DNA from: Escherichia coli | Lineage (GTDB): Bacteria; Pseudomonadota; Gammaproteobacteria; Enterobacterales; Enterobacteriaceae | NCBI RefSeq assembly: GCF_041886205.1 | Contig: NZ_CP169029.1 | Reading direction: 5' to 3' (one strand) | Length of the DNA stretch: 64,000 nucleotides | Shown: piece by piece, positions 2,481 to 63,893 of the stretch | How the letters are laid out: every line of letters starts with the position of its first letter | Position numbering within the stretch: the stretch's first letter is position 1 | The notes under the pieces: model-generated | Databases searched by the model: none | What the model was told of the DNA's origin: nothing | The model's input: the letters and a program-made list of their open reading frames with translations, nothing else | Position numbers and translations under genes: made by a program

Positions 2481-3959
<1,479 letters not shown>

Positions 3960-4044
3960 TTATTGTTTTTCACGACAGTAACCGCACCTACACTGTCATG
4001 ACATTGCTCGCCCCTATGTGTAACAAATAACCACACTGTGAATG

Positions 4045-4058
4045 TTGTCTTTAATCAA
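4045..4058. promoter_or_regulatory. Putative FNR site of the nrfA promoter
   Basis: The reverse complement reads TTGATTAAAGACAA, close to TTGAT-N4-ATCAA. It lies about 130 bp upstream of the nrfA start in the AT-rich nrfA/acs divergent control region. Confidence 0.45.
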
Positions 4059-4309
4059 TTGTAAGTGCATGTAAAATACCACTTTAGAGTTAGTCAGTAT
4101 CTTCCTCTTTTTCAACAGCATGCATAACTGCATGTTCCTCAAAGAATTAATCAACTTTTGTTGCTGACCTTCAAAAATTACCCTGCCGTTTATTTGCACA
4201 ATTCTACTTTTGCGTGATCTGTCGCCCAAATACTAAACAAAACTGCCAATACCCCTACATTTAACGCTTATGCCACATATTATTAACATCCTACAAGGAG
4301 AACAAAAGC

Positions 4310-6268
4310 ATGAGTCAAATTCACAAACACACCATTCCTGCCAACATCGCAGACCGTTGCCTGATAAACCCTCAGCAGTACGAGGCGATGTATCAACAAT
4401 CTATTAACGCACCTGATACCTTCTGGGGCGAACAGGGAAAAATTCTCGACTGGATCAAACCGTACCAGAAGGTGAAAAACACCTCCTTTGCCCCCGGTAA
4501 TGTCTCCATTAAATGGTACGAGGACGGCACGCTGAATCTGGCGGCAAACTGCCTTGACCGCCATCTGCAAGAAAACGGCGATCGTACCGCCATCATCTGG
4601 GAAGGCGACGACGCCAGCCAGAGCAAACATATCAGCTATAAAGAGCTGCACCGCGACGTCTGCCGCTTCGCCAATACCCTGCTCGAGCTGGGCATTAAAA
4701 AAGGTGACGTGGTGGCGATTTATATGCCGATGGTGCCGGAAGCCGCGGTTGCGATGCTGGCCTGCGCCCGTATTGGCGCGGTGCATTCGGTAATTTTCGG
4801 TGGCTTCTCGCCGGAAGCCGTTGCCGGGCGCATTATCGATTCTAACTCACGGTTGGTGATCACTTCCGACGAAGGCGTGCGCGCCGGGCGTAGTATTCCG
4901 CTGAAGAAAAACGTTGATGACGCACTAAAAAACCCGAACGTCACCAGCGTAGAGCATGTGGTGGTACTGAAGCGTACTGGCGGGAAAATTGACTGGCAGG
5001 AAGGGCGCGACCTGTGGTGGCACGACCTGGTTGAGCAAGCCAGCGATCAGCACCAGGCGGAAGAGATGAACGCCGAAGATCCGCTGTTTATTCTCTACAC
5101 CTCAGGTTCTACCGGAAAACCGAAAGGCGTACTGCACACTACCGGCGGTTATCTGGTGTACGCGGCGCTGACCTTTAAATATGTCTTTGATTATCATCCG
5201 GGTGATATCTACTGGTGCACCGCCGATGTGGGCTGGGTGACCGGACACAGTTACTTGCTGTACGGCCCGCTGGCCTGCGGTGCGACCACGCTGATGTTTG
5301 AAGGCGTACCGAACTGGCCGACGCCTGCCCGTATGGCGCAGGTGGTGGACAAGCATCAGGTCAATATTCTCTATACCGCACCCACGGCGATCCGCGCGCT
5401 GATGGCGGAAGGCGATAAAGCGATCGAGGGTACCGACCGTTCGTCGCTGCGCATTCTCGGTTCCGTGGGCGAGCCAATTAACCCGGAAGCGTGGGAGTGG
5501 TACTGGAAAAAAATCGGCAACGAGAAATGTCCGGTGGTCGATACCTGGTGGCAGACCGAAACTGGCGGTTTCATGATCACGCCGCTGCCTGGCGCTACCG
5601 AGCTGAAAGCCGGTTCGGCAACACGTCCGTTCTTCGGCGTGCAACCGGCGCTGGTCGATAACGAAGGTAACCCGCTGGAAGGCGCTACCGAAGGCAGCCT
5701 GGTGATCACCGACTCCTGGCCGGGTCAGGCGCGTACGCTGTTTGGCGATCACGAACGTTTTGAACAGACCTACTTCTCCACCTTCAAAAATATGTATTTC
5801 AGCGGCGACGGCGCGCGTCGCGATGAAGATGGCTATTACTGGATAACCGGGCGTGTGGACGATGTGCTGAACGTCTCCGGTCACCGTCTGGGAACGGCGG
5901 AGATTGAGTCGGCGCTGGTGGCGCATCCGAAGATTGCCGAAGCCGCCGTAGTAGGTATTCCGCACAATATTAAAGGTCAGGCGATCTACGCCTACGTCAC
6001 GCTTAATCACGGGGAGGAACCGTCACCAGAACTGTACGCAGAAGTCCGCAACTGGGTGCGTAAAGAGATTGGCCCGCTGGCGACGCCAGACGTGCTGCAC
6101 TGGACCGACTCCCTGCCTAAAACCCGCTCCGGCAAAATTATGCGCCGTATTCTGCGCAAAATTGCGGCGGGCGATACCAGCAACCTGGGCGATACCTCGA
6201 CGCTTGCCGATCCTGGCGTAGTCGAGAAGCTGCTTGAAGAGAAGCAGGCTATCGCGATGCCATCGTAA
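4310..6268 (+). CDS. acs: Acetyl-CoA synthetase (AMP-forming)
   Basis: 652 aa. Adenylate-forming motifs [11 protein letters not shown] and TRSGKIMRR. Followed by yjcH-actP. Confidence 0.97.
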
Positions 6269-6468: not shown

Positions 6469-8429
<1,961 letters not shown>

Positions 8430-28974: not shown

Positions 28975-30012
28975 TTAACGCTTATCCGCCACCAGTTTGA
29001 GCGCGTGTTCCAGCACATTAATGTCTGCACCCGCTTTATGGGCATTTTCACTTAAATAACGCCGCCACTGCCGCGCGCCAGGAATACCCTGGAACAAGCC
29101 CAACATATGCCGGGTAATATGACCGAGATACGTCCCCTGGCTGAGTTCACGCTCAATGTACGGATACATGGCGCGCACTACCGCCACCGGATCGGCATCG
29201 ATATCCGAGGAACCAAAGATCTCCCGGTCTACCGCCGCCAGAATACCCGGATTCTGATACGCCTCGCGCCCGACCATCACGCCATCCATATGTTGCAGGT
29301 GTGCTTTGGCCTCTTCCAGCGACTTGATACCACCGTTAATCGACATTGTCAGATGCGGAAAGTCACGCTTCAGTTGATACACACGCGGATAATCGAGCGG
29401 CGGGATCTCACGGTTTTCTTTCGGACTTAACCCCGAAAGCCAGGCTTTACGTGCATGGATGATGAACATCTCACACTCGCCTTTGCCGGAAACGGTGTTG
29501 ATGAAATCGCAGAGAAATTCATAGCTGTCCTGGTCGTCGATGCCAATACGCGTTTTCACCGTCACCGGAATCGACACCACATCGCGCATCGCTTTCACGC
29601 AGTCGGCAACCAGCTGCGCATTACCCATCAGACACGCACCAAACATGCCGTTCTGCACCCGGTCAGACGGGCAGCCGACATTCAGGTTGATCTCATCATA
29701 TCCACGCGCTTCTGCCAGCTTCGCACACTGCGCCAGCGCCGCCGGATCGCTACCGCCGAGTTGCAACGCTACCGGATGTTCTTCTTCACTATACGCCAGG
29801 TAATCACCTTTACCGTGAATAATCGCCCCTGTAGTTACCATTTCAGTATACAGCAACGTATTGCGGGAAAGCAGACGCAAGAAATAGCGGCAATGTCTGT
29901 CCGTCCAGTCGAGCATAGGAGCAATGCTAAACCGAGAATTCCAGTAAACACCAGTTTTTTCAGGCATCACGCTGGTTTGATTAATTTTTTGTGTTTCATG
30001 ATTATCGTGCAT
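28975..30012 (-). CDS. dusA: tRNA-dihydrouridine synthase A; its 5' end is probably supplied by the adjacent prophage
   Basis: 345-aa ORF. Dus TIM-barrel motifs ([22 protein letters not shown]). The intact ORF directly abuts a divergent integrase. Confidence 0.93.
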
Positions 30013-30100: not shown

Positions 30101-31198
30101 ATGGCGTACTATAACATAGAGAAACGACTAAAATCCGATGGCACACCACGCTATCGCTGTAATGTGATTATCAAAGAAAAAGGTGTTATCACTTACAGGG
30201 AAAGCAAAACATTCCCTAAACATGCTCATGCCAAAACATGGGGCACACAGAAAGTGATGGAATTAGATCTATATGGCATTCCATCATCAAATGCAGTTGA
30301 CGGACTTACAGTCCGTGACTTACTACACAAATATTTAAATGACCCAAATGCCGGAGGTAAAGCAGGCCGTACTAAAAGATATGTGCTAGAACTGCTTATG
30401 GATAGTGACATCTCCGCGATCAAACTATCTGAACTGACAGAAAATGACGTAATTGAACATTGCAGGCTAAGAAACAACGCTGGCGCAGGTCCAGCAACAG
30501 TCAGCCACGATGTTAGTTATCTTGGTAGTGTTCTGGATGCGGCCAAACCTGTATACGGAATTAATTACACATCAAACCCGGCGAAAAGTGCTCGTCCATA
30601 TCTACTTAAACTTGGTTTGATTGGTAAATCAAACCGTCGTAATCGTAGACCAGCATCTGATGAACTGGACATGCTCATTGAAGGCCTTCAACAACGATCT
30701 ACTCATAAATGCTCAAAAATTCCGTTCGTTGATATCCTCAAATTTTCTGTGTGGTCCTGTATGCGAATCGGAGAAGTATGCCGGTTACGATGGGAAGATC
30801 TCGACCAGGAACAAAAATCTATACTCGTAAGAGACAGGAAAGATCCACGCAAAAAGGAAGGCAACCACATGAAAGTAGCCTTGCTTGGGGAAGCCTGGGA
30901 TATCGTCCAACGACAGCCCCAAAAATCGGAATTCATTTTTCCATATAACAGCACTTCTGTTACTGCGGGATTTCAGAGAGTAAGAAGCAAATTAGGTATT
31001 AAGGATCTGCGATACCATGATTTGCGTAGAGAAGGGGCAAGTCGCTTATTTGAGGCTGGTTTTAGTATTGAGGAAGTCGCCCAGGTTACAGGGCATCGTT
31101 CATTAAACGTGCTATGGCAGGTATATACCGAACTGTATCCGAAATCTTTACATAATCGTTTTGAAGAGCTCCAAAGGAGCAGAAATAAGATCCCTTGA
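30101..31198 (+). CDS. int: Tyrosine integrase, dusA-associated type
   Basis: 365 aa. C-terminal catalytic region HDLRREGASRLF...VTGHRSLNVLWQVYTELY (R..HxxR..H..Y). Divergent from dusA and 88 bp away. Confidence 0.9.
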   Translation: MAYYNIEKRLKSDGTPRYRCNVIIKEKGVITYRESKTFPKHAHAKTWGTQKVMELDLYGIPSSNAVDGLTVRDLLHKYLNDPNAGGKAGRTKRYVLELLMDSDISAIKLSELTENDVIEHCRLRNNAGAGPATVSHDVSYLGSVLDAAKPVYGINYTSNPAKSARPYLLKLGLIGKSNRRNRRPASDELDMLIEGLQQRSTHKCSKIPFVDILKFSVWSCMRIGEVCRLRWEDLDQEQKSILVRDRKDPRKKEGNHMKVALLGEAWDIVQRQPQKSEFIFPYNSTSVTAGFQRVRSKLGIKDLRYHDLRREGASRLFEAGFSIEEVAQVTGHRSLNVLWQVYTELYPKSLHNRFEELQRSRNKIP

Positions 31199-31259: not shown

Positions 31260-31508
31260 ATGCGTATTGAAATCTGCATAGCCAAAGAAAAAATGACTAA
31301 AATGCCAACCGGTGCTGTGGATGCGTTAAAGGAAGAATTAACCCGACGCATCAGTAAGCGTTATGACGATGTAGAGGTGATCGTAAAAGCCACCAGCAAC
31401 GATGGGCTTTCAGTTACACCTACTGCAGATAAAGATTCAGCTAAAACTTTTGTGCAGGAAACTCTGAAAGATACCTGGGAGTCTGCTGACGAGTGGTTTG
31501 TTCACTAA
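31260..31508 (+). CDS. DinI-family (DinI/MsgA-like) damage-inducible protein
   Basis: 82 aa. [10 protein letters not shown]...LKEELTRRI...[16 protein letters not shown] matches the DinI family pattern (MRIEVTIAK...ILQETWESADDWF). Confidence 0.85.
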
Positions 31509-31511
31509 TTA

Positions 31512-31575
31512 GCACTATCGGAAGTTCACCAGCCAACCGCAGCACGTTTTTGCATACAACGTGCCTGCGGTTTTT
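31512..31575 (+). terminator. DinI-gene terminator hairpin; copy 1 of a ~63-bp direct repeat
   Basis: GCACTATCGGAAGTTCACCAGCCAACCGCAGCACGTTTTTGCATACAACGTGCCTGCGGTTTTT: stem ACCGCAGCACGT/ACGTGCCTGCGGT followed by T5. Repeated at 34181-34243. Confidence 0.75.
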
Positions 31576-31731
31576 CGAGACTATTCTGACCGTCATACTT
31601 ACACATCAACTTAGCGCCCATCCAGAGAAATTATCTTTTTTGCATTCCGAAGATTCAAAGAGTTAGCCTAATTTTCCAGATAGTTTTCTCGACAAATCTG
31701 AGGTATTTTGGTTATCGATATAGTGCTTTGG

Positions 31732-32788
31732 GGCTTTGTTGAATAAATCAGATTTCGGGTAAGTCTCCCCCGTAGCGGGTTGTGTTTTCAGGCAATACGC
31801 ACGCTTTCAGGCATACCTGCTTTCGTCATTTTGTTCAGCGCTCGTACCAGGGCCATAGCCTCTGCAACCTGACCATCGTAGTCACGCAGCGTCAGTGAAC
31901 CCCCGAACAGCTGTTTTACCCGGTACATCGCCGTTTCCGCTATCGAGCGACGGTTGTAATCTGTTGTCCATTTCCACCGCGCATTACTCCCGGTCATTCG
32001 CTGATTAGCCACTGCACGGTTACGGTCTGCATATTCACCGGGCCAGTAACCCGCACCTTTTCGGGGAGGGATAAGCGCGCTGATTTTCTTACGCCGCAGT
32101 TCATCGTGACATAGCCGGGTATCGTAAGCGCCATCGGCGGCGGCTGACCTGATTTTCCGGTGGGTTTGCCGGATTAACCCGGGGAAGGCCTCTGAGTCCG
32201 TAACGTTGTTCAGCGACAGGTCAGCGCAGATGATTTCATGTGTTTTACTGTCAACGGCGAGATGCAGCTTACGCCAGATACGGCGGCGTTCCTGGCCATG
32301 CTTTTTGACTTTCCACTCGCCTTCACCGAAGACCTTCAGCCCGGTGGAATCAATTACCAGGTGTGCGATTTCACCCCGGGTGGGCGTTTTGAAACTGACA
32401 TTAACCGACTTTGCCCGCCTGCTGACACAGCTGTAATCCGGGCAGCGTAGCGGAACGTTCATCAGAGAAAAAATGGAATCAATAAAGCCCTGCGCAGCGC
32501 GCAGGGTCAGCCTGAATACGCGTTTAATGACCAGCACAGTCGTGATGGCAAGGTCAGAATAGCGCTGAGGTCTGCCTCGTGAAGAAGGTGTTGCTGACTC
32601 ATACCAGGCCTGAATAGCTTCATCATCCAGCCAGAAAGTTATGGAGCCACGGTTGATGAGGGCTTTATTGTAGGTGGGCCAGTTGGTGATTTTGAACTTT
32701 TGCTTTGCCACGGAACGGTCTGCGTTGTCGGGAAGATACGTGATCTGATCCTTCAACTCAGCAAAAGTTCGATTTATTCAACAAAGCC
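31732..32788 (-). mobile_element. IS903-group (IS5 family) insertion sequence, 1057 bp
   Basis: Perfect 18-bp terminal inverted repeats GGCTTTGTTGAATAAATC at both ends. 9-bp target-site duplication GTGCTTTGG at 31723-31731 and 32789-32797. A single transposase ORF lies inside. Confidence 0.95.
31788..32756 (-). CDS. IS903-type DDE transposase
   Basis: ...AKQKFKITNWPTYNKALINRGSITFWLDD...DSTGLKVFGEGEWKVKKHG...AETAMYRVKQLFGG matches the IS903/IS102 transposase as remembered. The family start (307 aa) would be the GTG at 32711. Confidence 0.93.
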   Translation of the reverse strand: MKDQITYLPDNADRSVAKQKFKITNWPTYNKALINRGSITFWLDDEAIQAWYESATPSSRGRPQRYSDLAITTVLVIKRVFRLTLRAAQGFIDSIFSLMNVPLRCPDYSCVSRRAKSVNVSFKTPTRGEIAHLVIDSTGLKVFGEGEWKVKKHGQERRRIWRKLHLAVDSKTHEIICADLSLNNVTDSEAFPGLIRQTHRKIRSAAADGAYDTRLCHDELRRKKISALIPPRKGAGYWPGEYADRNRAVANQRMTGSNARWKWTTDYNRRSIAETAMYRVKQLFGGSLTLRDYDGQVAEAMALVRALNKMTKAGMPESVRIA

Positions 32789-32843
32789 GTGCTTTGGCTG
32801 AGGAACAGCATTAAATTCAACCATTTTATTCATAGGGATTAAA

Positions 32844-33848
32844 ATGCAAGATACAGACGTTTACGTATACATAGGCGATGTTCACCGCTCTGGTCATCAC
32901 GACATCACCAAAGCGATTAAAGAAAGAAAAACTAACCATGGTTTACAAAAAAATGTTCTTTTTTGCGTCGCTACCTATGGCGGTGATCCCAGCGCAGGAT
33001 ATAGAATTGGCCGCGCTTTGCAACACAACTATGAACACATCACCGTTCTAGTTGTTGGCCCTTGCAAAAGTGCTGGAACCTTGATGGCTGTCGCCGCTCA
33101 TAAGCTCGTGATTGGTGATATGGGTGAGCTTGGTCCTCTAGACATCCAACTTAAGAAAAATGATGAGATCGGCGAATTGAGCTCGGGCCTTGTTATCGCA
33201 ACGGCGATTGATGAAATAAAAGAGTGCGCTATTTCGACCTTTAGATCATACGTACTTGATATAAAGTACAGAAACCAAATTAGCACGAAGATGTCTGCAG
33301 ATATTGCTGCTAAGCTTACTGAAGCAATCATATCGCCGATGGCCTCACAGATAGACCCCATCAAACTCGGGGAGCATCAACGAGCAATGAACATAGCGCT
33401 TTCCTATGGGGAGCGTTTGAATAGTCACTCGAAAAATCTTAAGGAAAGCTCCTTAGGCAAGTTGATCGCTGGATATCCAGCCCATGGTTTTGTGATAGAC
33501 CGTAAAGAGGCGAGGGAACTATTCAACCATGTTGAGAGTCCTACAGACTTTGCAGCCAACCTGTACGAAGTTCTTGGTGAGATGATTTCGTCAGGCGAAA
33601 TCTCTATCTTCGACAAACCGGTGATTAAAGATTTAACTCCTAAAAAACAATATGAAACAACTAACGCAGAGGAAGATTCCCATGACAACAGCAGAATTCA
33701 GGAAGGAGATGAAATCTCTGACCAAAATTCAGGAAGAGCAGAACCGCCAAGGGATGAACCTGTCCAGGGAAGCGATGGAAAACATGCGGAAATTGAAGAA
33801 GAGGCTGGAACCTTACCAGCAGAGCAACCAGATGAAGGCACTCAGTGA
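32844..33848 (+). CDS. Orphan ClpP/SppA/SDH-fold serine peptidase with an acidic low-complexity C-terminal tail
   Basis: 334 aa. Contains VVGPCKSAGTLMAVAAHKLVIGDMGELGPLDIQ (Ser nucleophile in a G-x-x-S-A-G context typical of Clp-fold peptidases) and later AHGFVIDRKEARELF. The last ~70 aa are D/E/Q/P/G-rich. It has its own RBS (AGGGA) and a downstream terminator. Confidence 0.65.
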   Translation: MQDTDVYVYIGDVHRSGHHDITKAIKERKTNHGLQKNVLFCVATYGGDPSAGYRIGRALQHNYEHITVLVVGPCKSAGTLMAVAAHKLVIGDMGELGPLDIQLKKNDEIGELSSGLVIATAIDEIKECAISTFRSYVLDIKYRNQISTKMSADIAAKLTEAIISPMASQIDPIKLGEHQRAMNIALSYGERLNSHSKNLKESSLGKLIAGYPAHGFVIDRKEARELFNHVESPTDFAANLYEVLGEMISSGEISIFDKPVIKDLTPKKQYETTNAEEDSHDNSRIQEGDEISDQNSGRAEPPRDEPVQGSDGKHAEIEEEAGTLPAEQPDEGTQ

Positions 33849-33866: not shown

Positions 33867-33900
33867 GAGGACCTCGGCTACTACGCCGGGGTCTCTTTTT
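33867..33900 (+). terminator. Rho-independent terminator of the protease cassette
   Basis: GAGGACCTCGGC-TACTAC-GCCGGGGTCTC imperfect hairpin followed by TTTTT. Confidence 0.65.
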
Positions 33901-34180
33901 ACATCACTGGGCAGTCATCAAACTCCGCATTCCTAGCATCGTGATGATGTACGTGATTGCTCCGAATATTGAGTGTGAGTAATTGTAGCCACCACCATCA
34001 TCTGGCAGTGCTTCCGTTCTCCAGATTTATCAGGTGGGACTAAGGATGAGTACGATATCGCTTAATCCTGAAACTCCATTTCAGACAGGGACCCTATTAC
34101 AGACCGAAAGACCACAGATAAGTAGTTTGTTCATAAATTAATGCGTAGAATCAATAACGGCTGGAAATCATTCAATACTC

Positions 34181-34243
34181 GCACTATCGAAAGTTCGCCA
34201 GCCAGCCGCAGCACGTTCTTGCATACGACGTGGCTGCGGCTTC
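34181..34243 (+). repeat. Copy 2 of the DinI-terminator repeat (no T-run)
   Basis: GCACTATCGAAAGTTCGCCAGCCAGCCGCAGCACGTTCTTGCATACGACGTGGCTGCGGCTT differs from copy 1 (31512-31575) at 7 positions over the 62 bp compared. One pair of substitutions is compensatory in the stem (A..T to G..C). Confidence 0.8.
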
Positions 34244-34280: not shown

Positions 34281-34844
34281 TTATTTCGTTTGAATGCCAG
34301 TAACAGGAAATCGTTTATATAGGGTTGATAGCCCAACGTTATAGATACGTGCAACATAACGCCGTGATTTCCCTGCCGCTATGAGCGCTCCCATCTGTTG
34401 CCACTGCTCGTCGCTAAACTTCGGTCTACGCCCACCAATCCGGCCTTTGGATCTGGCAATAGCCAAACCAGCTAAAGTTCGCTCGCTATTCAAATCAGAT
34501 TCATACTGCGCAGCAGAAAGAATATTACGGAAATTATAGCGACCACTTGCTGTTTTCAGGTCTACACCATCTGTAATACTCCGAAAATTAACGCCTTTTT
34601 CGTGCAGATTTTGAAACATCAATAGCGCATGTAGCACATTTCTCCCTATCCGATCTAGCTTCCAGACAATCAACTCATCTCCACTTTTCATCACCGAAAT
34701 TAATTCCTTTAACACAGGGCGATTAGCTGTTCTGCCACTGGCATATTCTTCATAAATTCGCTCACAGCCAGCTGACTCAAGTGCAAGACGTTGCAACTCT
34801 GTATCCTGATGATTTGTTGATACACGAACATACCCGTAAATCAT
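34281..34844 (-). CDS. Serine-recombinase DNA invertase (Gin/Pin/Hin family)
   Basis: 187 aa. MIYGYVRVSTNHQDTELQ (catalytic Ser), ...DRIGRN..., and a C-terminal HTH GKSRRYVARIYNVGLSTLYKR. Adjacent to the invertible tail-fibre segment. Confidence 0.92.
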   Translation of the reverse strand: MIYGYVRVSTNHQDTELQRLALESAGCERIYEEYASGRTANRPVLKELISVMKSGDELIVWKLDRIGRNVLHALLMFQNLHEKGVNFRSITDGVDLKTASGRYNFRNILSAAQYESDLNSERTLAGLAIARSKGRIGGRRPKFSDEQWQQMGALIAAGKSRRYVARIYNVGLSTLYKRFPVTGIQTK

Positions 34845-34903
34845 GAGTGCTTCTCCTGTTGTAAAAACAGGAGAAGAGGCGAAATATCACCTGATTCAGA
34901 AAA

Positions 34904-34929
34904 ATATTTGAAAGGTTGGTTTGGGAGAA
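34904..34929. promoter_or_regulatory. Left inversion crossover site (gix/hix-like)
   Basis: ATATTTGAAAGGTTGGTTTGGGAGAA. Its 15 bp TTGGTTTGGGAGAAG (34916-34930) are an exact inverted copy of 36813-36827. Confidence 0.75.
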
Positions 34930-35415
34930 GGCTCAGCGTTACCCGTTGGTGTGCCTGTTCCGTGGCCTTCAGCCACACCACCAACAGGCTGGCTGAAATG
35001 CAACGGTGCACCTTTTTCTGCCGAAGAGTACCCAAAACTGGCAAAGGCTTACCCAAAGTTAAAATTACCGGATTTGCGCGGTGAGTTTATTCGCGGGTGG
35101 GATGATGGGCGAGGTGTTGATTCCGCGAGACTGCTGCTTTCAAGTCAGGCAGCATCTATCCTTGAACATAACCATGAAATGCATGGATGGACAGGGAACC
35201 CACTCATGGCTAGAGATGTTGGTGAATTAGGTACATCATCCGTATTTGCGGTGCAGTTGAGCATTGGCGATGGCGGGTTATTGTATTCGTGGAAGGATGG
35301 GAGTGGAACAACAAATGACAGTAAACGAATGGATAGAACAAATCATGTCAGTTCCGGCGCCGGTGATGGTAGCCCGCGAAACATTGCATTTAACTACATT
35401 GTGAGGGCTGCATAA
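34921..35415 (+). CDS. Silent alternative tail-fibre C-terminal cassette (Sv'-like, promoterless in this orientation)
   Basis: Begins inside the crossover site with no independent ATG or RBS. LGEGSALPVGVPVPWPSATPPTGWLKCNGAPFSAEEYPKLAKAYP... is the classic phage tail-fibre receptor-binding C-terminus. It would be fused to the constant part after inversion. Confidence 0.8.
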   Translation: MGEGSALPVGVPVPWPSATPPTGWLKCNGAPFSAEEYPKLAKAYPKLKLPDLRGEFIRGWDDGRGVDSARLLLSSQAASILEHNHEMHGWTGNPLMARDVGELGTSSVFAVQLSIGDGGLLYSWKDGSGTTNDSKRMDRTNHVSSGAGDGSPRNIAFNYIVRAA

Positions 35416-36018
35416 ATGGAACAGGCTATTTTGGGAAAAGACGGTTACGCTTTAAATGATGGGGAAATCATCGTACATAACTATGATGGCGAAACGCGGG
35501 AATATATTTCTACATCAACTGAATATCTCGCTGTCGGAGTCGGTATCCCGGCATGTTCCTGTCTGGATGCACCAGGTACACATAAAGCTGGTTATGCAAT
35601 CTGTCGCTCTGTAGATTTAAATTCATGGGAATATGTGCCAGACCATCGCGGTGAAACGGTCTATAGCACCAAAACAGGAGAATCAAAAGAAATCACCGCT
35701 CCGGGTGATTACCCTGAAAATACAACCACTATCGCCCCATTAACGCCATACGATAAATGGGATGGTGAGAAATGGGTGACCGATACTGAGGCACAGCATA
35801 GCGCCGCAGTAGACGCGGCAGAAGCACAGCGCCAGTCACTGATTGATGCTGCAATGGCTTCCATTAGTCTGATTCAACTGAAATTGCAGGCCGGACGTAA
35901 ACTGACGCAGGCAGAAACAACCAGACTTAACGCTGTGCTGGATTACATTGACGCGGTGACGGCAACAGATACCAGCACCGCGCCGGATGTCATCTGGCCT
36001 GAACTGCCGGAGGCGTAG
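35416..36018 (+). CDS. Tail-fibre assembly chaperone (Tfa/U'-like) of the silent cassette
   Basis: 200 aa. The C-terminal ...LIQLKLQAGRKLTQAETTRLNAVLDYIDAVTATDTSTAPDVIWPELPE is typical of the Tfa family. Confidence 0.85.
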   Translation: MEQAILGKDGYALNDGEIIVHNYDGETREYISTSTEYLAVGVGIPACSCLDAPGTHKAGYAICRSVDLNSWEYVPDHRGETVYSTKTGESKEITAPGDYPENTTTIAPLTPYDKWDGEKWVTDTEAQHSAAVDAAEAQRQSLIDAAMASISLIQLKLQAGRKLTQAETTRLNAVLDYIDAVTATDTSTAPDVIWPELPEA

Positions 36019-36442
36019 GCCATTCAATATCTGGCGCACTGGAGGTATCAACCAGCTCCAGTGCATCCAGATAATCCAGCCACAAATTATATTGCGCCAG
36101 TTCCTCACCTTTCAGACGACCAATAGCGGCTTTACCGGGCCATTGCTTACTGTTCATGTATTCGTTGGCCTGGTTAATTAGTAGCTGTCTTTCTGATTCA
36201 GTAATTTCAATAAGCTCTTCATGCGTGGGTGGAGGAATATCTGCCCACGCAGGCAGCCCATCATCTCCGGCAATACGGATTTTTCCTTGTGGCGGTTCAG
36301 CCATAAACTCACTGATAATATTTTGATTTACTTCCTTAGCGTCTGATAAATCCCATCCCTCTGATTTATATTTATCAATCATATCCACAGGGAAAAAAGC
36401 ATTATGCCTTGCGCTATAAACATATTCGTTCATATAAATCAC
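35990..36442 (-). CDS. Tail-fibre assembly chaperone (Tfa/U-like) of the expressed cassette
   Basis: 150 aa. ...LKGEELAQYNLWLDYLDALELVDTSSAPDIEWPTPP is the Tfa C-terminal motif. Convergent 29-bp overlap with the other tfa gene. Confidence 0.85.
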   Translation of the reverse strand: MIYMNEYVYSARHNAFFPVDMIDKYKSEGWDLSDAKEVNQNIISEFMAEPPQGKIRIAGDDGLPAWADIPPPTHEELIEITESERQLLINQANEYMNSKQWPGKAAIGRLKGEELAQYNLWLDYLDALELVDTSSAPDIEWPTPPAVQAR

Positions 36443-36453
36443 CCTGAATAAAA

Positions 36454-37116
36454 TTACTCACCAACAGCCCACCAACTGTAATTCATCGATACCGTGTCGC
36501 TGGTTGATGACGTTCTGTAAGCAGAATTAAAGCCGGTTAACGTTGGGCCTTCTGCAGTCATCACGAACCCTCGCCCAGCGCCTAAAGGCGCACCGCCATC
36601 ACCAGAATGAGTAAGCATGGCGCAGTCCGCTTTTTTGGGGAAAGGGATGCTGAATGTAATTCTCATTGTTTGCGTCGATAATGTCGGCGTAACCGCACCA
36701 CGACCATATTGCAGGATTTTCCCGTTGGGTAATTTCATCCATCCATCACCACTGGCAAAAGAGGCCATGTCCGGTATCTGATTTTCCCCTGTCCCCACAT
36801 CCCGTTTTGCCGCTTCTCCCAAACCAAGGTTTTCGAGAGCCGTTTTCACCGTGCCATCCGATTTGATATCGCCAAACGGATTCTTGCGGCTTAACAGCAG
36901 CGCACGAAGCGCGGTAAGCAGCTGGTCATGCCGCCCCTTCTCCAGGCTGGCACCGGATGCCTCCACCACGCTGCAAAGTTCCTCCTGCAACATGTCAAAG
37001 TAGTCATCATCCAGATCGGTGGCAGGCGTGCCGGTCTGGGGGTTACCACGGGTAAAACCGTTCTTACCCGCGCCGAACTTATCCTTCTGCGCGGTTTTCG
37101 TGTCTATACGATGCAT
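36454..37116 (-). CDS. Tail-fibre protein: constant N-terminus plus the currently expressed variable C-terminus
   Basis: 220 aa. The crossover site lies at codons ...ALENLGLGE. Upstream is the conserved phage tail-fibre N-terminus [47 protein letters not shown]. Confidence 0.85.
36814..36839. promoter_or_regulatory. Right inversion crossover site (gix/hix-like) inside the tail-fibre gene
   Basis: TTCTCCCAAACCAAGGTTTTCGAGAG resembles remembered hixL TTCTTGAAAACCAAGGTTTTTGATAA (12+2+12 with central AA). Confidence 0.8.
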
Positions 37117-50194: not shown

Positions 50195-50812
50195 TTACGC
50201 GTTAAGAAGGGTCAGGACGCGTTCACGCGCCATACGTTGATTAATGGCTTTCTGTAGCGCGCCGCTGTTGCGCGCCTCCTGCCATGCTTTCATGGAGCGA
50301 ACAGCCGAGTCAGCCTCCTGATAGGCAGGATATGTCACAGGACTGACATCCAGCAGACGGGAAAAGCGGGTTATCTCGCGAATAACAACCCCGTCCTCAT
50401 CCTGATACCACTCCTCGCCGTCACGGGCGACACGGAAAGCAAAAGATGACTGGTTAATATCTCCACGTTGCATCGGGGCCAGCACCAGATCACGAATGGT
50501 CTGTGTCTCCGGAGCCTGGATGTCATAGCGCAATCCGCGCTCATCAACTGAAAGATTCAGCGTGCCTGCTGCACTACGCCCAAGAATAAAATTAGGATCG
50601 TGGTTAAACAGTGCGCGTACATCATCACCAAGCACATCGTCAAAAGCGCCGGGCCGGATGATTTCGCGGAATGAACCGAATATCAGCTCAGAACGACAGT
50701 CAAACACCGATCCATAACCGATAATGTGCGCCGGGTTATCGTCATGCCGCTCAGCACGCACCTCACCGCTGTAACAACGGATTTCACGGTCATTCATTGG
50801 TTTTTCCCTCAT
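50195..50812 (-). CDS. Prohead maturation protease, HK97 family (S78)
   Basis: 205 aa. ...HIIGYGSVFDCRSELIFGSFREIIRPGAFDDVL... Located between the portal and capsid genes. Confidence 0.85.
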   Translation of the reverse strand: MREKPMNDREIRCYSGEVRAERHDDNPAHIIGYGSVFDCRSELIFGSFREIIRPGAFDDVLGDDVRALFNHDPNFILGRSAAGTLNLSVDERGLRYDIQAPETQTIRDLVLAPMQRGDINQSSFAFRVARDGEEWYQDEDGVVIREITRFSRLLDVSPVTYPAYQEADSAVRSMKAWQEARNSGALQKAINQRMARERVLTLLNA

Positions 50813-61999: not shown

Positions 62000-62338
62000 C
62001 TATTTCCCTGAATTTACGACGAAACTGTTCGAGCGGGCTGAAGCACTCATGCTCATAGCCTTCGCGGAGGTAGATAACCCGTTGTGTTTCCGGTTCCCAA
62101 CGAATGACTCTGACGGGCACTCCGTAGTGATCTTTGAACCAGCGGTTAACTTGTTGCAAAGGACTGTCTCCTTCTGCCGGTTGAAATCACCCACAGCCCA
62201 CTCTGCAAAGCTGTGGGTTACAATTTCCCTGTCACCTGGTACATTCACTGCATAGCAATACTCCACCTTCGCTTTTCCACCCGGTACAGGAAGCGCAATC
62301 AGTTGCGAGCGACGGTAGTGTGTTGTTAAACTGTTCAT
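62000..62338 (-). CDS. Hypothetical early protein (e14 YmfM-like by size and position)
   Basis: 112 aa, coupled to the upstream YmfL-like gene. The assignment rests on synteny with e14 cro-ymfL-ymfM. Confidence 0.45.
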
Positions 62339-62919
62339 GCGTTAGTTTCTCCACAACCAGAAGCAATCGACGCCACGACGCCCGGAGCTGCACACTCGCG
62401 GGCGTTACTCTTTTCCGGCGCACAAAAAACACGAAATAACAGTGTTAAATGCTCCTGCCACTTCGCCATTACTTGGTAGCTGTTCTCTTCGATTTGCTCA
62501 CGCTCAGCCTGGTCAATAACTCCATCAGCAGTTGCCTTGCGTAAGTACTGGGAATGCTTGCCAATCCATTCTATTGACTCCATCAGCCGCTGATTAATGT
62601 CACCATTGTCAATGTCATCAATGACCACCAGCGGCACAAACACCCCATTACTACGACGGGCTATTGCATCTGTTACATGCCTGGTACCACTGGCATCCTG
62701 TAAAACCATGGCCCACTCAAGTGGAAAAATTTGATCCCCACCGCTACGCAGTCTGTTATGCAATTGATCTTTTGCTGGGGTGATATCATCAGATTTATAC
62801 AAACCAAGAATTTCTGCTGCTTCCTCATAGCCATGAGGTAAATCAGCAATCGTTCTTCGTATTGCTGCCACCAGCCATGCTGGTTGTTTATCAACTTTCC
62901 ATTCAGGTTCTTTACCCAC
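62335..62919 (-). CDS. Hypothetical early regulator (e14 YmfL-like by size and position)
   Basis: 194 aa, second gene of the rightward-equivalent early operon after cro. Confidence 0.45.
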
Positions 62920-63177: not shown

Positions 63178-63240
63178 TGTAGGATATCCAACATGCAAAT
63201 GTCAAGAATCCTACATGGGCATGTGGTAGGATTGCCTACA
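63178..63240. promoter_or_regulatory. Tripartite operator region with divergent early (PR-like) and maintenance (PRM-like) promoters
   Basis: Three 16-bp sites of type TGTAGGAT-ATCCTACA: 63178-63193 TGTAGGATATCCAACA, 63200-63215 TGTCAAGAATCCTACA, 63225-63240 GGTAGGATTGCCTACA. On the minus strand, TTGACA (63200-63205) and TACATT (63176-63181) with an 18-nt spacer face cro. Confidence 0.7.
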
Positions 63241-63893
63241 TGATGAACATGAGTGATCGTATTCGCCAAAGGCGAAAAGAACTGAACCTGACACAACAAG
63301 CACTGGCTGATTTGACTGGTGTGAACCGTGTCACGGTTACTGGATGGGAAAAGGACGACTACCAACCAAATGGAGCCAACCTTCAAGCCCTAGCCAACGC
63401 ACTTAAATGCGATCCTCTGTGGCTTGTTAGCGGAAAAGGCTCGCCTGAACCAAAGATAAATCTAAAACCTGAAATATTCGCAGTTAAAAAAGTCCCCCTA
63501 ATCTCGTGGGTTCAGGCGGGTTCATGGACAATGACGGAGCCTGGTGTCAGGAAAGAAGATGCTGAAGAGTGGGTTTATACTACCGCCCTTGTATCAGAAA
63601 TGGCATTTGCACTACGGGTCCGTGGTGATTCAATGACCAATCCCCTCGGCTCACCATCGATACCAGAAGGTTCTATCGTTATCGTAGAGCCAGATATTAT
63701 TGATACAGAGTGTATTAACGGAAAAATCGTTGTTGCCCATATCAATGGTGGGCAAGAAGCGACACTCAAAAAATTTGTTGAGGACTGGCCGAACAGGTAT
63801 CTCGTCCCACTAAATCCTAACTATAAAACTATTGAATGCGGTGAGAACTGCAGAATAGTTGGTCTTGTCAAACAAGTAATAATGGATTTTTGA
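63240..63893 (+). CDS. CI-like prophage repressor (HTH_XRE plus S24 LexA-type autopeptidase)
   Basis: 217 aa. N-terminal IRQRRKELNLTQQALADLTGVNRVTVTGWE. C-terminal ...FALRVRGDSMTNP... (S24 Ser) and a later Lys region. Confidence 0.88.
   Translation: MMNMSDRIRQRRKELNLTQQALADLTGVNRVTVTGWEKDDYQPNGANLQALANALKCDPLWLVSGKGSPEPKINLKPEIFAVKKVPLISWVQAGSWTMTEPGVRKEDAEEWVYTTALVSEMAFALRVRGDSMTNPLGSPSIPEGSIVIVEPDIIDTECINGKIVVAHINGGQEATLKKFVEDWPNRYLVPLNPNYKTIECGENCRIVGLVKQVIMDF

Follow-up and report, generated by a model that had tools for sequence, protein, structure and literature searches.

Here we describe a mobile protease gene carried by a prophage of Escherichia coli. The stretch under study, referred to below as the window, comprises 64,000 nucleotides of contig NZ_CP169029.1 (assembly GCF_041886205.1), and the gene occupies positions 32844-33848 on its plus strand. 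As judged from motifs and predicted fold, the product is an SDH-type Clp-fold serine protease of a divergent subfamily, and the gene by itself forms an accessory cassette, a moron that is passed among temperate phages. Both the identity of the protease and its status as cargo are solid. As to its role, sequence context points to the exclusion of competing phages, a function for which we consider the chances to be even.

A divergent protease of the Clp fold

An earlier note on this DNA had proposed a Clp fold with a serine nucleophile, quoting the motifs VVGPCKSAGTLMAVAAHKLVIGDMGELGPLD and AHGFVIDRKEARELF, both of which are carried by the 334-aa product; profile, alignment and Foldseek matches all agree with that proposal. 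Among curated models, the protein matched SDH_protease of Pfam (PF01972; 27.0 bits, E 2.9e-6) and Clp_like_SDH of NCBIfam (NF047768; 35.9 bits, E 5e-9) under their respective cut-offs of 31.3 and 250, and CLP_protease of Pfam with 16.1 bits relative to a cut-off of 20.2. Models of NfeD1b_N and of ClpP-related head proteases matched more weakly still and did not reach their cut-offs. The profile matches are confined to residues ~20-106 (70-87 N-terminal residues), and many of the homologues carry a precomputed PF01972 match, described as "weak" where its strength is stated. In PHROGs, the protein falls into phrog_21683 (E 2e-198; function unknown), and its RefSeq product name is "SDH family Clp fold serine proteinase". 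The architecture had been described as unrecognized in the earlier note, a statement that is contradicted by the RefSeq name, by phrog_21683 and by the existing DefenseFinder model FS_HP_SDH_sah. The protein is of a known kind that has already been catalogued.

Because the family profile, when run against PDB sequences alone, returned marginal matches only (E 0.24-0.74), a comparison of folds was needed. An AlphaFold2 model was built from 25 homologues, in which residues 1-267 are confidently modeled, with helices at residues 115-144, 148-168, 172-196 and then 203-250, and residues 270-334 are disordered. The best Foldseek match of the model in the PDB was SppA of Bacillus subtilis (4kwb), and the best predicted viral structures in a fold search of BFVD were "serine dehydrogenase proteinases" of giant viruses (Marseillevirus, Mimivirus and Klosneuvirus lineages) rather than phage head proteases. 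By analogy with its structural relatives, the protease is probably oligomeric and ring-shaped.

Conservation was judged in an alignment of 25 homologues with 39-85% identity, in which S76, D100 and H214 are all invariant and H214 is the sole invariant His. In the family profile, CKS76AGT aligns with the nucleophile turns of ClpP (AASMGT) and 1510-N (AASAGT), and the likewise invariant TYGGDP aligns with the TPGG oxyanion loop of these proteins. Both hallmarks of the ClpP/crotonase fold (clan SK), namely the fold itself and a nucleophile turn accompanied by a T-x-G-G loop, are present. The order Ser-Asp-His is that of the SDH family, in spite of scores below that family's curated cut-offs, and catalysis through Ser76-Asp100-His214 is inferred. 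In ClpP, the triad is Ser-His-Asp and its His lies ~25 residues after the Ser. The residue found 24 positions after Ser76 is Asp100 and not a His, and the triad order indicates that the protein is not a ClpP (family S14); going by the known ClpP triad, Asp100 would stand where ClpP has its His. SppA and NfeD 1510-N use Ser-Lys dyads and are anchored in the membrane. K75 is invariant and K105 nearly so in the alignment, and the window protein is not demonstrably an SppA-type Ser-Lys enzyme. The highest 19-residue Kyte-Doolittle mean, 1.59, falls at the active-site strand, no membrane segment is apparent, and the protease is predicted to be soluble and cytoplasmic.

The core is followed by a C-terminal tail, which the earlier note had described as acidic, ~70 residues long and probably disordered. 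That description is well supported, with 20 D/E vs. 5 K/R, a net charge of -15, an isoelectric point of about 4.05 and predicted local distance difference test (pLDDT) values below 40. When the 120 best homologues were compared, a tail of at least 40 aa was found in 107, always of low hydrophobicity and with no conservation of sequence; the net charge of the tail was -5 or lower in 68 of them, and in 49 it was close to neutral. Conservation extends to the presence of a disordered appendage and not to its acidity. Since the acidity is conserved only in part, a specific role as a nucleic-acid mimic, as put forward in the earlier note, is argued against. The enterobacterial tails share a motif at approximately residues 318-330, G-[TA]-[LIV]-[PS]-x-[EQDK]-x-P-D (e.g., GTLPAEQPDE and GTIPSEQPDE), which could be a docking or self-cleavage site. 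Going by the title of PDB entry 4kwb, the crystallized SppA carries its C-termini in its active sites, where they are bound and trimmed, which provides an analogy for the tail and not evidence; by this analogy, the tail may be an autoinhibitory or self-trimmed pro-region.

A mobile cassette between dinI and pin

The prophage is integrated at dusA, and its protease gene lies between dinI and the gene for a pin-type serine invertase (Table 1). The interval between dinI and pin measures 2,772 bp here vs. 143 bp in a sister prophage of E. coli SM107 with the same dusA-int-dinI-pin order. Two direct repeats of the dinI 3' flank, ~88% identical (85-89%) and including the 3' end of dinI and its terminator-like flank, bracket the inserted sequence in the window, where cassette-free prophages have a single copy. 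The cassette of ~1.5 kb consists of ~215 bp of upstream sequence, the protease open reading frame (ORF), a terminator and the remnant of an S24-peptidase gene. Copies with 97-99% identity occur in two prophage backbones, one at dusA with a lambda-like tail and the other at prfC with a Mu-like baseplate, and the cassette adjoins dinI in both. Among 5,426 complete E. coli genomes, this allele was found in 20, and a paralogue with 59% identity was found in 28. Presence in two backbones and in only 20 genomes indicates a mobile accessory gene. The cargo status claimed in the earlier note is thus upheld, the int-to-invertase slot of SM107 being without the cassette. An analogy had also been drawn to the slot that holds mcrA in the e14 element. 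It holds loosely, as mcrA is indeed flanked there by pinE on one side and by the prophage end on the other.

The S24-peptidase (LexA/cI-like) remnant and the protease gene are convergent. In APEC O78, where the region is 97% identical, the remnant is annotated as frameshifted, and the window has no intact ORF for it. As blastx of the 280 bp 3' of the protease gene gave nothing significant against the cI-like genes of the collected loci, the RefSeq pseudogene call is the sole basis for the remnant. Its presence hints that the cassette may have been captured from the immunity region of another phage.

In agreement with the earlier note, the protease gene lies on the strand opposite to the structural genes (~36.4-62.9 kb) and is richer in AT, with a GC content of 43-45% vs. 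55-60% in the baseplate and tail genes at 37-40 kb; the neighboring int, dinI and pin are, however, equally AT-rich. It had also been stated that the gene possesses its own ribosome-binding site and terminator. Both were found, and the intrinsic terminator is kept in the uninterrupted allele as well, but the notion of "own expression signals" is overstated, because an insertion sequence (IS) has cut off 214 bp of native upstream sequence. Judged to be IS903-like by its length and by the sequence of its ends, this element separates dinI from the protease gene, its end being 55 bp and the right copy of its target-site duplication 46 bp from the ATG. It is absent from every other copy examined, i.e., GXU-23-25-310, APEC O78, the IMG/VR loci L105 and L106, and locus L189, and a scan of the 5,426 complete E. 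coli genomes returned no second case of the interrupted arrangement (best coverage, 91%).

By detaching the gene from its native upstream sequence, the insertion may have silenced or re-wired this copy. On that account, the window gene would be a silent passenger whose promoter was removed by the IS, and it would be either unexpressed or expressed aberrantly from an outward promoter borne by the element. Indeed, the IS and its 9-bp duplication sit precisely between the ORF and the 214 bp of native sequence, no promoter-like site occurs within the 46 bp left between the duplication and the ATG, and not one complete genome shares the arrangement. On the other hand, the ORF is undamaged and does not differ from its cluster (P0001) or from the IS-free copies in loci L002 and L189 (100% identity), so any inactivation must be recent. 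In addition, the native promoter was not located either and may have lain on either side of the insertion point, and IS elements can also activate neighboring genes. We therefore regard silencing or aberrant expression of this copy as a real possibility, with the odds slightly against it. The question is independent of what the family does.

The early note's view that the gene does not encode the head protease is borne out. Under the opposing view, the phage would have two morphogenetic proteases, and this one, of the ClpP/S49 type, would serve the prohead or scaffold as gpC does in lambda. ClpP-related head maturation proteases in PHROGs and NCBIfam are indeed matched weakly, over no more than 60-85 residues around the nucleophile. 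The prophage, however, already possesses a canonical S78 prohead protease gene between its portal and capsid genes, no morphogenesis gene recurs as a neighbor in ~180 homologous loci, and the gene is absent from sister prophages that share the structural module. These three observations effectively refute a morphogenetic role, which we consider barely credible.

Beyond the cassette, pin and an apparent invertible segment together span 34281-37116, with opposed sets of tail-fiber C-terminus and assembly genes (34921-36018 on the plus strand and 35990-37116 on the minus strand), as in e14, Mu and P1. The immunity region of the prophage is found near the right-hand end of the window, and the slot downstream of its own cI, equivalent to that of rexAB, runs off the window.

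Table 1. Features of the prophage and of the protease cassette in the 64,000-nucleotide window.
Feature	Position	Strand	Remarks
dusA	28975-30012	-	Prophage attachment gene
Integrase gene	30101-31198	+	
dinI	31260-31508	+	
dinI 3'-flank repeat, left copy	31492-31573		Brackets the cassette; families D1, D5
Target-site duplication, 9 bp	31723-31731 (left); 32789-32797 (right)		GTGCTTTGG
IS903-like element	31732-32788	-	1,057 bp; 33-nt imperfect terminal inverted repeats
DDE transposase ORF of the IS	31788-32756	-	DDE_Tnp_1 and DDE_Tnp_1_5 domains; IS5-family
Shine-Dalgarno-like AGGGA	32833-32837	+	6 nt 5' of the ATG; read from sequence
Protease ORF	32844-33848	+	Complete, 334 aa; stop codon 33846-33848; predicted SDH-type ClpP-fold serine protease
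Folded core, residues 1-267	32844-33644	+	Predicted ClpP-like alpha/beta part (1-105), then helical region
Ser76 codon (CKSAGT)	33069-33071	+	Predicted nucleophile; invariant in 25 homologues
Asp100 codon (GELGPLD)	33141-33143	+	Predicted triad acid; invariant in 25 homologues
His214 codon (YPxHxFVIDRxEA)	33483-33485	+	Predicted triad base; invariant in 25 homologues
Disordered acidic tail, residues 268-334	33645-33845	+	pLDDT 34-38
Intrinsic terminator	33869-33904 (also called as 33869-33894)	+	10-bp stem with 7 GC pairs, then T-run CTTTTTACAT
S24-peptidase (LexA/cI-like) gene remnant	~33899-34072	-	Coordinates from RefSeq pseudogene in APEC O78
dinI 3'-flank repeat, right copy	34121-34242		Joins dinI directly to pin in cassette-free prophages
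pin-type serine invertase gene	34281-34844	-	
Invertible tail-fiber segment, tail/baseplate genes	34921 onward	mixed, then -	
S78 HK97-type prohead protease gene	50195-50812		Between portal and capsid genes
CII/CP76-like gene	62335-62919	-	Immunity region of the prophage
cI-like repressor gene of this prophage	63240-63893	+	Helix-turn-helix and S24 domains

Homologues behind phage repressors

The genomic surroundings of the homologues bear most directly on function. In an all-against-all clustering of 690 neighbor ORFs from 78 species-level loci, the sole recurrent neighbor was a cI/LexA-like repressor, present in 12 of the loci and, with one exception, situated upstream of the protease gene in the same orientation. 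No conserved partner gene was detected, a result on which the clustering of the 690 ORFs and Pfam scans of 76 and 38 neighbors agree. Among the viral contigs of IMG/VR, BLAST showed that at least 40 of 80 loci have a cI-like gene immediately 5' of the homologue and on its strand, typically with gaps of 16-170 bp, and Pfam identified five more S24 genes among 38 further neighbor ORFs of these loci. In the lambdoid prophages of E. coli that carry the 59%-identical paralogue (e.g., in UMNK88, NC_017641.1, 2848941-2849942), the order is cII and cro on one strand, followed on the other by cI, the protease gene, N, cIII, kil, gam, bet and exo, and the same adjacency of repressor and protease is seen in prophages of Klebsiella, Morganella and Bartonella. 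A terminator-like site was not found between cI and the protease gene, and a strong one lies 3' of the protease gene, which is consistent with a bicistronic lysogenic operon in which co-transcription is inferred. A 71-aa ORF overlapping the start of a Klebsiella phage homologue was considered as a partner and rejected, since it occurs in near-identical loci only and is frameshifted in one of them.

The interval between cI and N is a known hotspot of mosaicism, occupied by rexAB in lambda and by bstA in the Salmonella phage BTP1, both of them abortive-infection systems (Owen et al., PMC8585504). The repeated occurrence of homologues directly after cI, in the slot of rexAB and bstA, strengthens the idea of a function in defense or exclusion. 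We propose that the protease gene, sitting behind cI in many phages, is probably co-transcribed with it in lysogens, and that the cassette was inserted instead between dinI and pin, near the dusA attachment site, in the present prophage. The protease would then be expressed in the lysogen as a self-contained activity that requires no partner gene, and its tail would hold it inactive or be self-processed. Most likely, the enzyme would cleave either one of the proteins of the infecting phage or one of the host on which that phage depends, and the outcome would be a lysogen protected from other phages by superinfection exclusion or abortive infection. A wider version of this proposal would hold that the whole family is a widespread single-gene anti-phage system, a Ser-Asp-His protease of the ClpP fold encoded in repressor operons, kept latent by its tail and unleashed by an infecting phage so as to exclude it. 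The wider version we put forward tentatively, as somewhat doubtful.

Proximity to repressors would also be expected of a protease with a regulatory part in the lysis-lysogeny or SOS circuit, which would degrade or process the phage's own regulators or SOS-linked host factors and thereby tune induction or lysogeny. Its candidate substrates would include cI or fragments thereof, cII-like proteins, antirepressors and the LexA/RecA/DinI axis. Recurrence of the gene immediately after cI/LexA-like S24 repressors fits such a role, as do its position next to dinI in both the window and APEC O78, the S24 remnant that travels with the cassette, and its arrangement in Klebsiella phage ST13-OXA48phi12.4. 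In that phage (locus L003, 5815-7996), the protease gene is divergent from a pair of genes for an XRE regulator and an ImmA/IrrE (M78) metallopeptidase; the same type of lineage is represented in loci L113-L117, L119 and L132. However, the repressors encoded upstream are of unrelated types, from proteins of 127-155 aa with a helix-turn-helix (HTH) domain only in Klebsiella to proteins with HTH and S24 domains elsewhere. Moreover, the gene has moved alone out of the immunity region in the window prophage, and it occurs in chromosomal contexts apparently outside of prophages that would be unexpected for the dedicated regulator of a single phage. Finally, S24 repressors of the LexA/cI type cleave themselves and need no added protease. 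Taken together, we find a regulatory role quite unlikely.

Although of modest size, the family extends well beyond E. coli. Among 1.84 billion representatives, 940 clusters (50% identity) match at E <= 1e-30, and members were found in Proteobacteria, Chlorobi, Chloroflexi, Cyanobacteria, Acidobacteria, Planctomycetes and others. This spread across phyla, the number of clusters, the frequent location of the gene amid ordinary metabolic genes and the lack of a sensor or effector partner would suit cargo unrelated to phages, i.e., a lysogenic-conversion gene with a role in quality control, in stress tolerance, or in the processing of a host or virulence factor. Nevertheless, the distribution is sparse and patchy, with 238 confirmed matches when two strict motifs were applied to one genome per species in 185,579 species, and with fewer than 1% of E. 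coli genomes carrying the gene. The gene is also strongly enriched behind the repressor on viral contigs, the position from which rexAB and bstA act on other phages. In our view, a role unrelated to phages is unlikely. Carriage on plasmids is negligible (four of 72,556 records, two of which are of chromosomal size at 4 Mb); one example is the 9.8-kb plasmid NC_012972.1 of Methylovorus glucosotrophus, in which a 45%-identical homologue occupies 3948-4634. Of the isolated phages in INPHARED, only two carry the family, and one of these is the P2-like Burkholderia phage vB_HM387, whose 38%-identical homologue (6914-7984) follows the integrase gene near the end of the record, a further accessory-gene position.

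Several observations weigh against exclusion of competing phages as the role of the protease. The window copy itself lies between dinI and pin, away from its own cI; the slot behind the repressor is occupied by homologues in E. coli, Klebsiella, Morganella, Bartonella and viral contigs, not by this copy. A promoter scan upstream of the gene detected no sigma-70 consensus in either the window or the uninterrupted allele. Among the 78 species-level loci, 44 are without neighbors that resemble proteins of viral contigs, other upstream neighbors belong to unrelated families of the housekeeping type, and the homologue of Neisseria dumasiana lies between a fimbrial operon and genes for aromatic catabolism. 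PADLOC-DB v2.0.0 contains no hidden Markov model family that matches the protease at E <= 1, and a literature search on SDH Clp-fold, SppA-like or ClpP-like proteases in prophages or defense returned nothing functional. The AlphaFold2 model, being that of a monomer, is silent on triad geometry and oligomeric state. Lastly, the case for defense from genomic position is a probabilistic one. Should the proposed role be wrong, the gene would still illustrate clearly how prophage cargo can move as a cassette, in this case one that was recently disturbed by an IS insertion. Should it be right, the protease would be a one-gene, easily testable candidate for phage exclusion by proteolysis.

Comparison with known systems

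The closest relatives of the window protein in terms of family are those of the SDH family (PF01972 and NF047768; related to MEROPS S49), with which it has in common the ClpP/crotonase fold, the Ser within a G-x-x-x-S-A-G turn and the order Ser-Asp-His. Relative to the curated family, the window protein adds a long region of three helices and the disordered tail, and it is without an apparent membrane segment. To our knowledge, no biological function has been demonstrated for any member of either SDH branch; an anti-phage role would thus be the first for the SDH branch of Clp-fold proteases. Motifs at the nucleophile and in the oxyanion loop of ClpP, SppA and 1510-N align with those of the window protein at an overall identity of only 9-18%, and, unlike ClpP and SppA, the protein has neither a ClpX/ClpA partner nor a membrane anchor at its locus. 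If the proposed role holds, a self-compartmentalizing protease would join the short list of proteolytic anti-phage effectors.

The existence of the DefenseFinder model FS_HP_SDH_sah is documented by SDH_sah matches in oral phage contigs (PMC13532340). By name, this is the nearest defense system. Its name indicates two genes, one for a hypothetical protein and the other for an SDH protein, whereas the window protease is without a conserved partner and has an IS upstream. SDH_sah is presumably an earlier Pfam name for PF01972; if so, the system would be an anti-phage one centered on an SDH-type protease of a phage-related mobile element. The model reportedly stems from work on phage-inducible chromosomal islands by Fillol-Salom and colleagues in 2022. 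A conceptual precedent is offered by Lit of e14, which is likewise a protease carried as prophage cargo in E. coli, in an e14-type prophage with a Mu-like tail. Lit is a zinc metalloprotease that cleaves a host translation factor on a phage cue, and its fold is unrelated to that of the window protease.

The most instructive comparison is with RexAB of lambda and BstA of BTP1. No kinship in sequence or fold connects the protease with RexA, RexB or BstA, and the window copy resides at the int/dinI end of its prophage, outside the immunity region. In spite of these differences, homologues of the protease fill the identical slot, in the order cI, gene, terminator and N. Like the protease, BstA is encoded by a single gene, and both have some homologues outside of prophages. 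If the anti-phage role is correct, the protease would be a functional analogue of RexAB and BstA that occupies the classic rexAB slot, with variants across many phyla.

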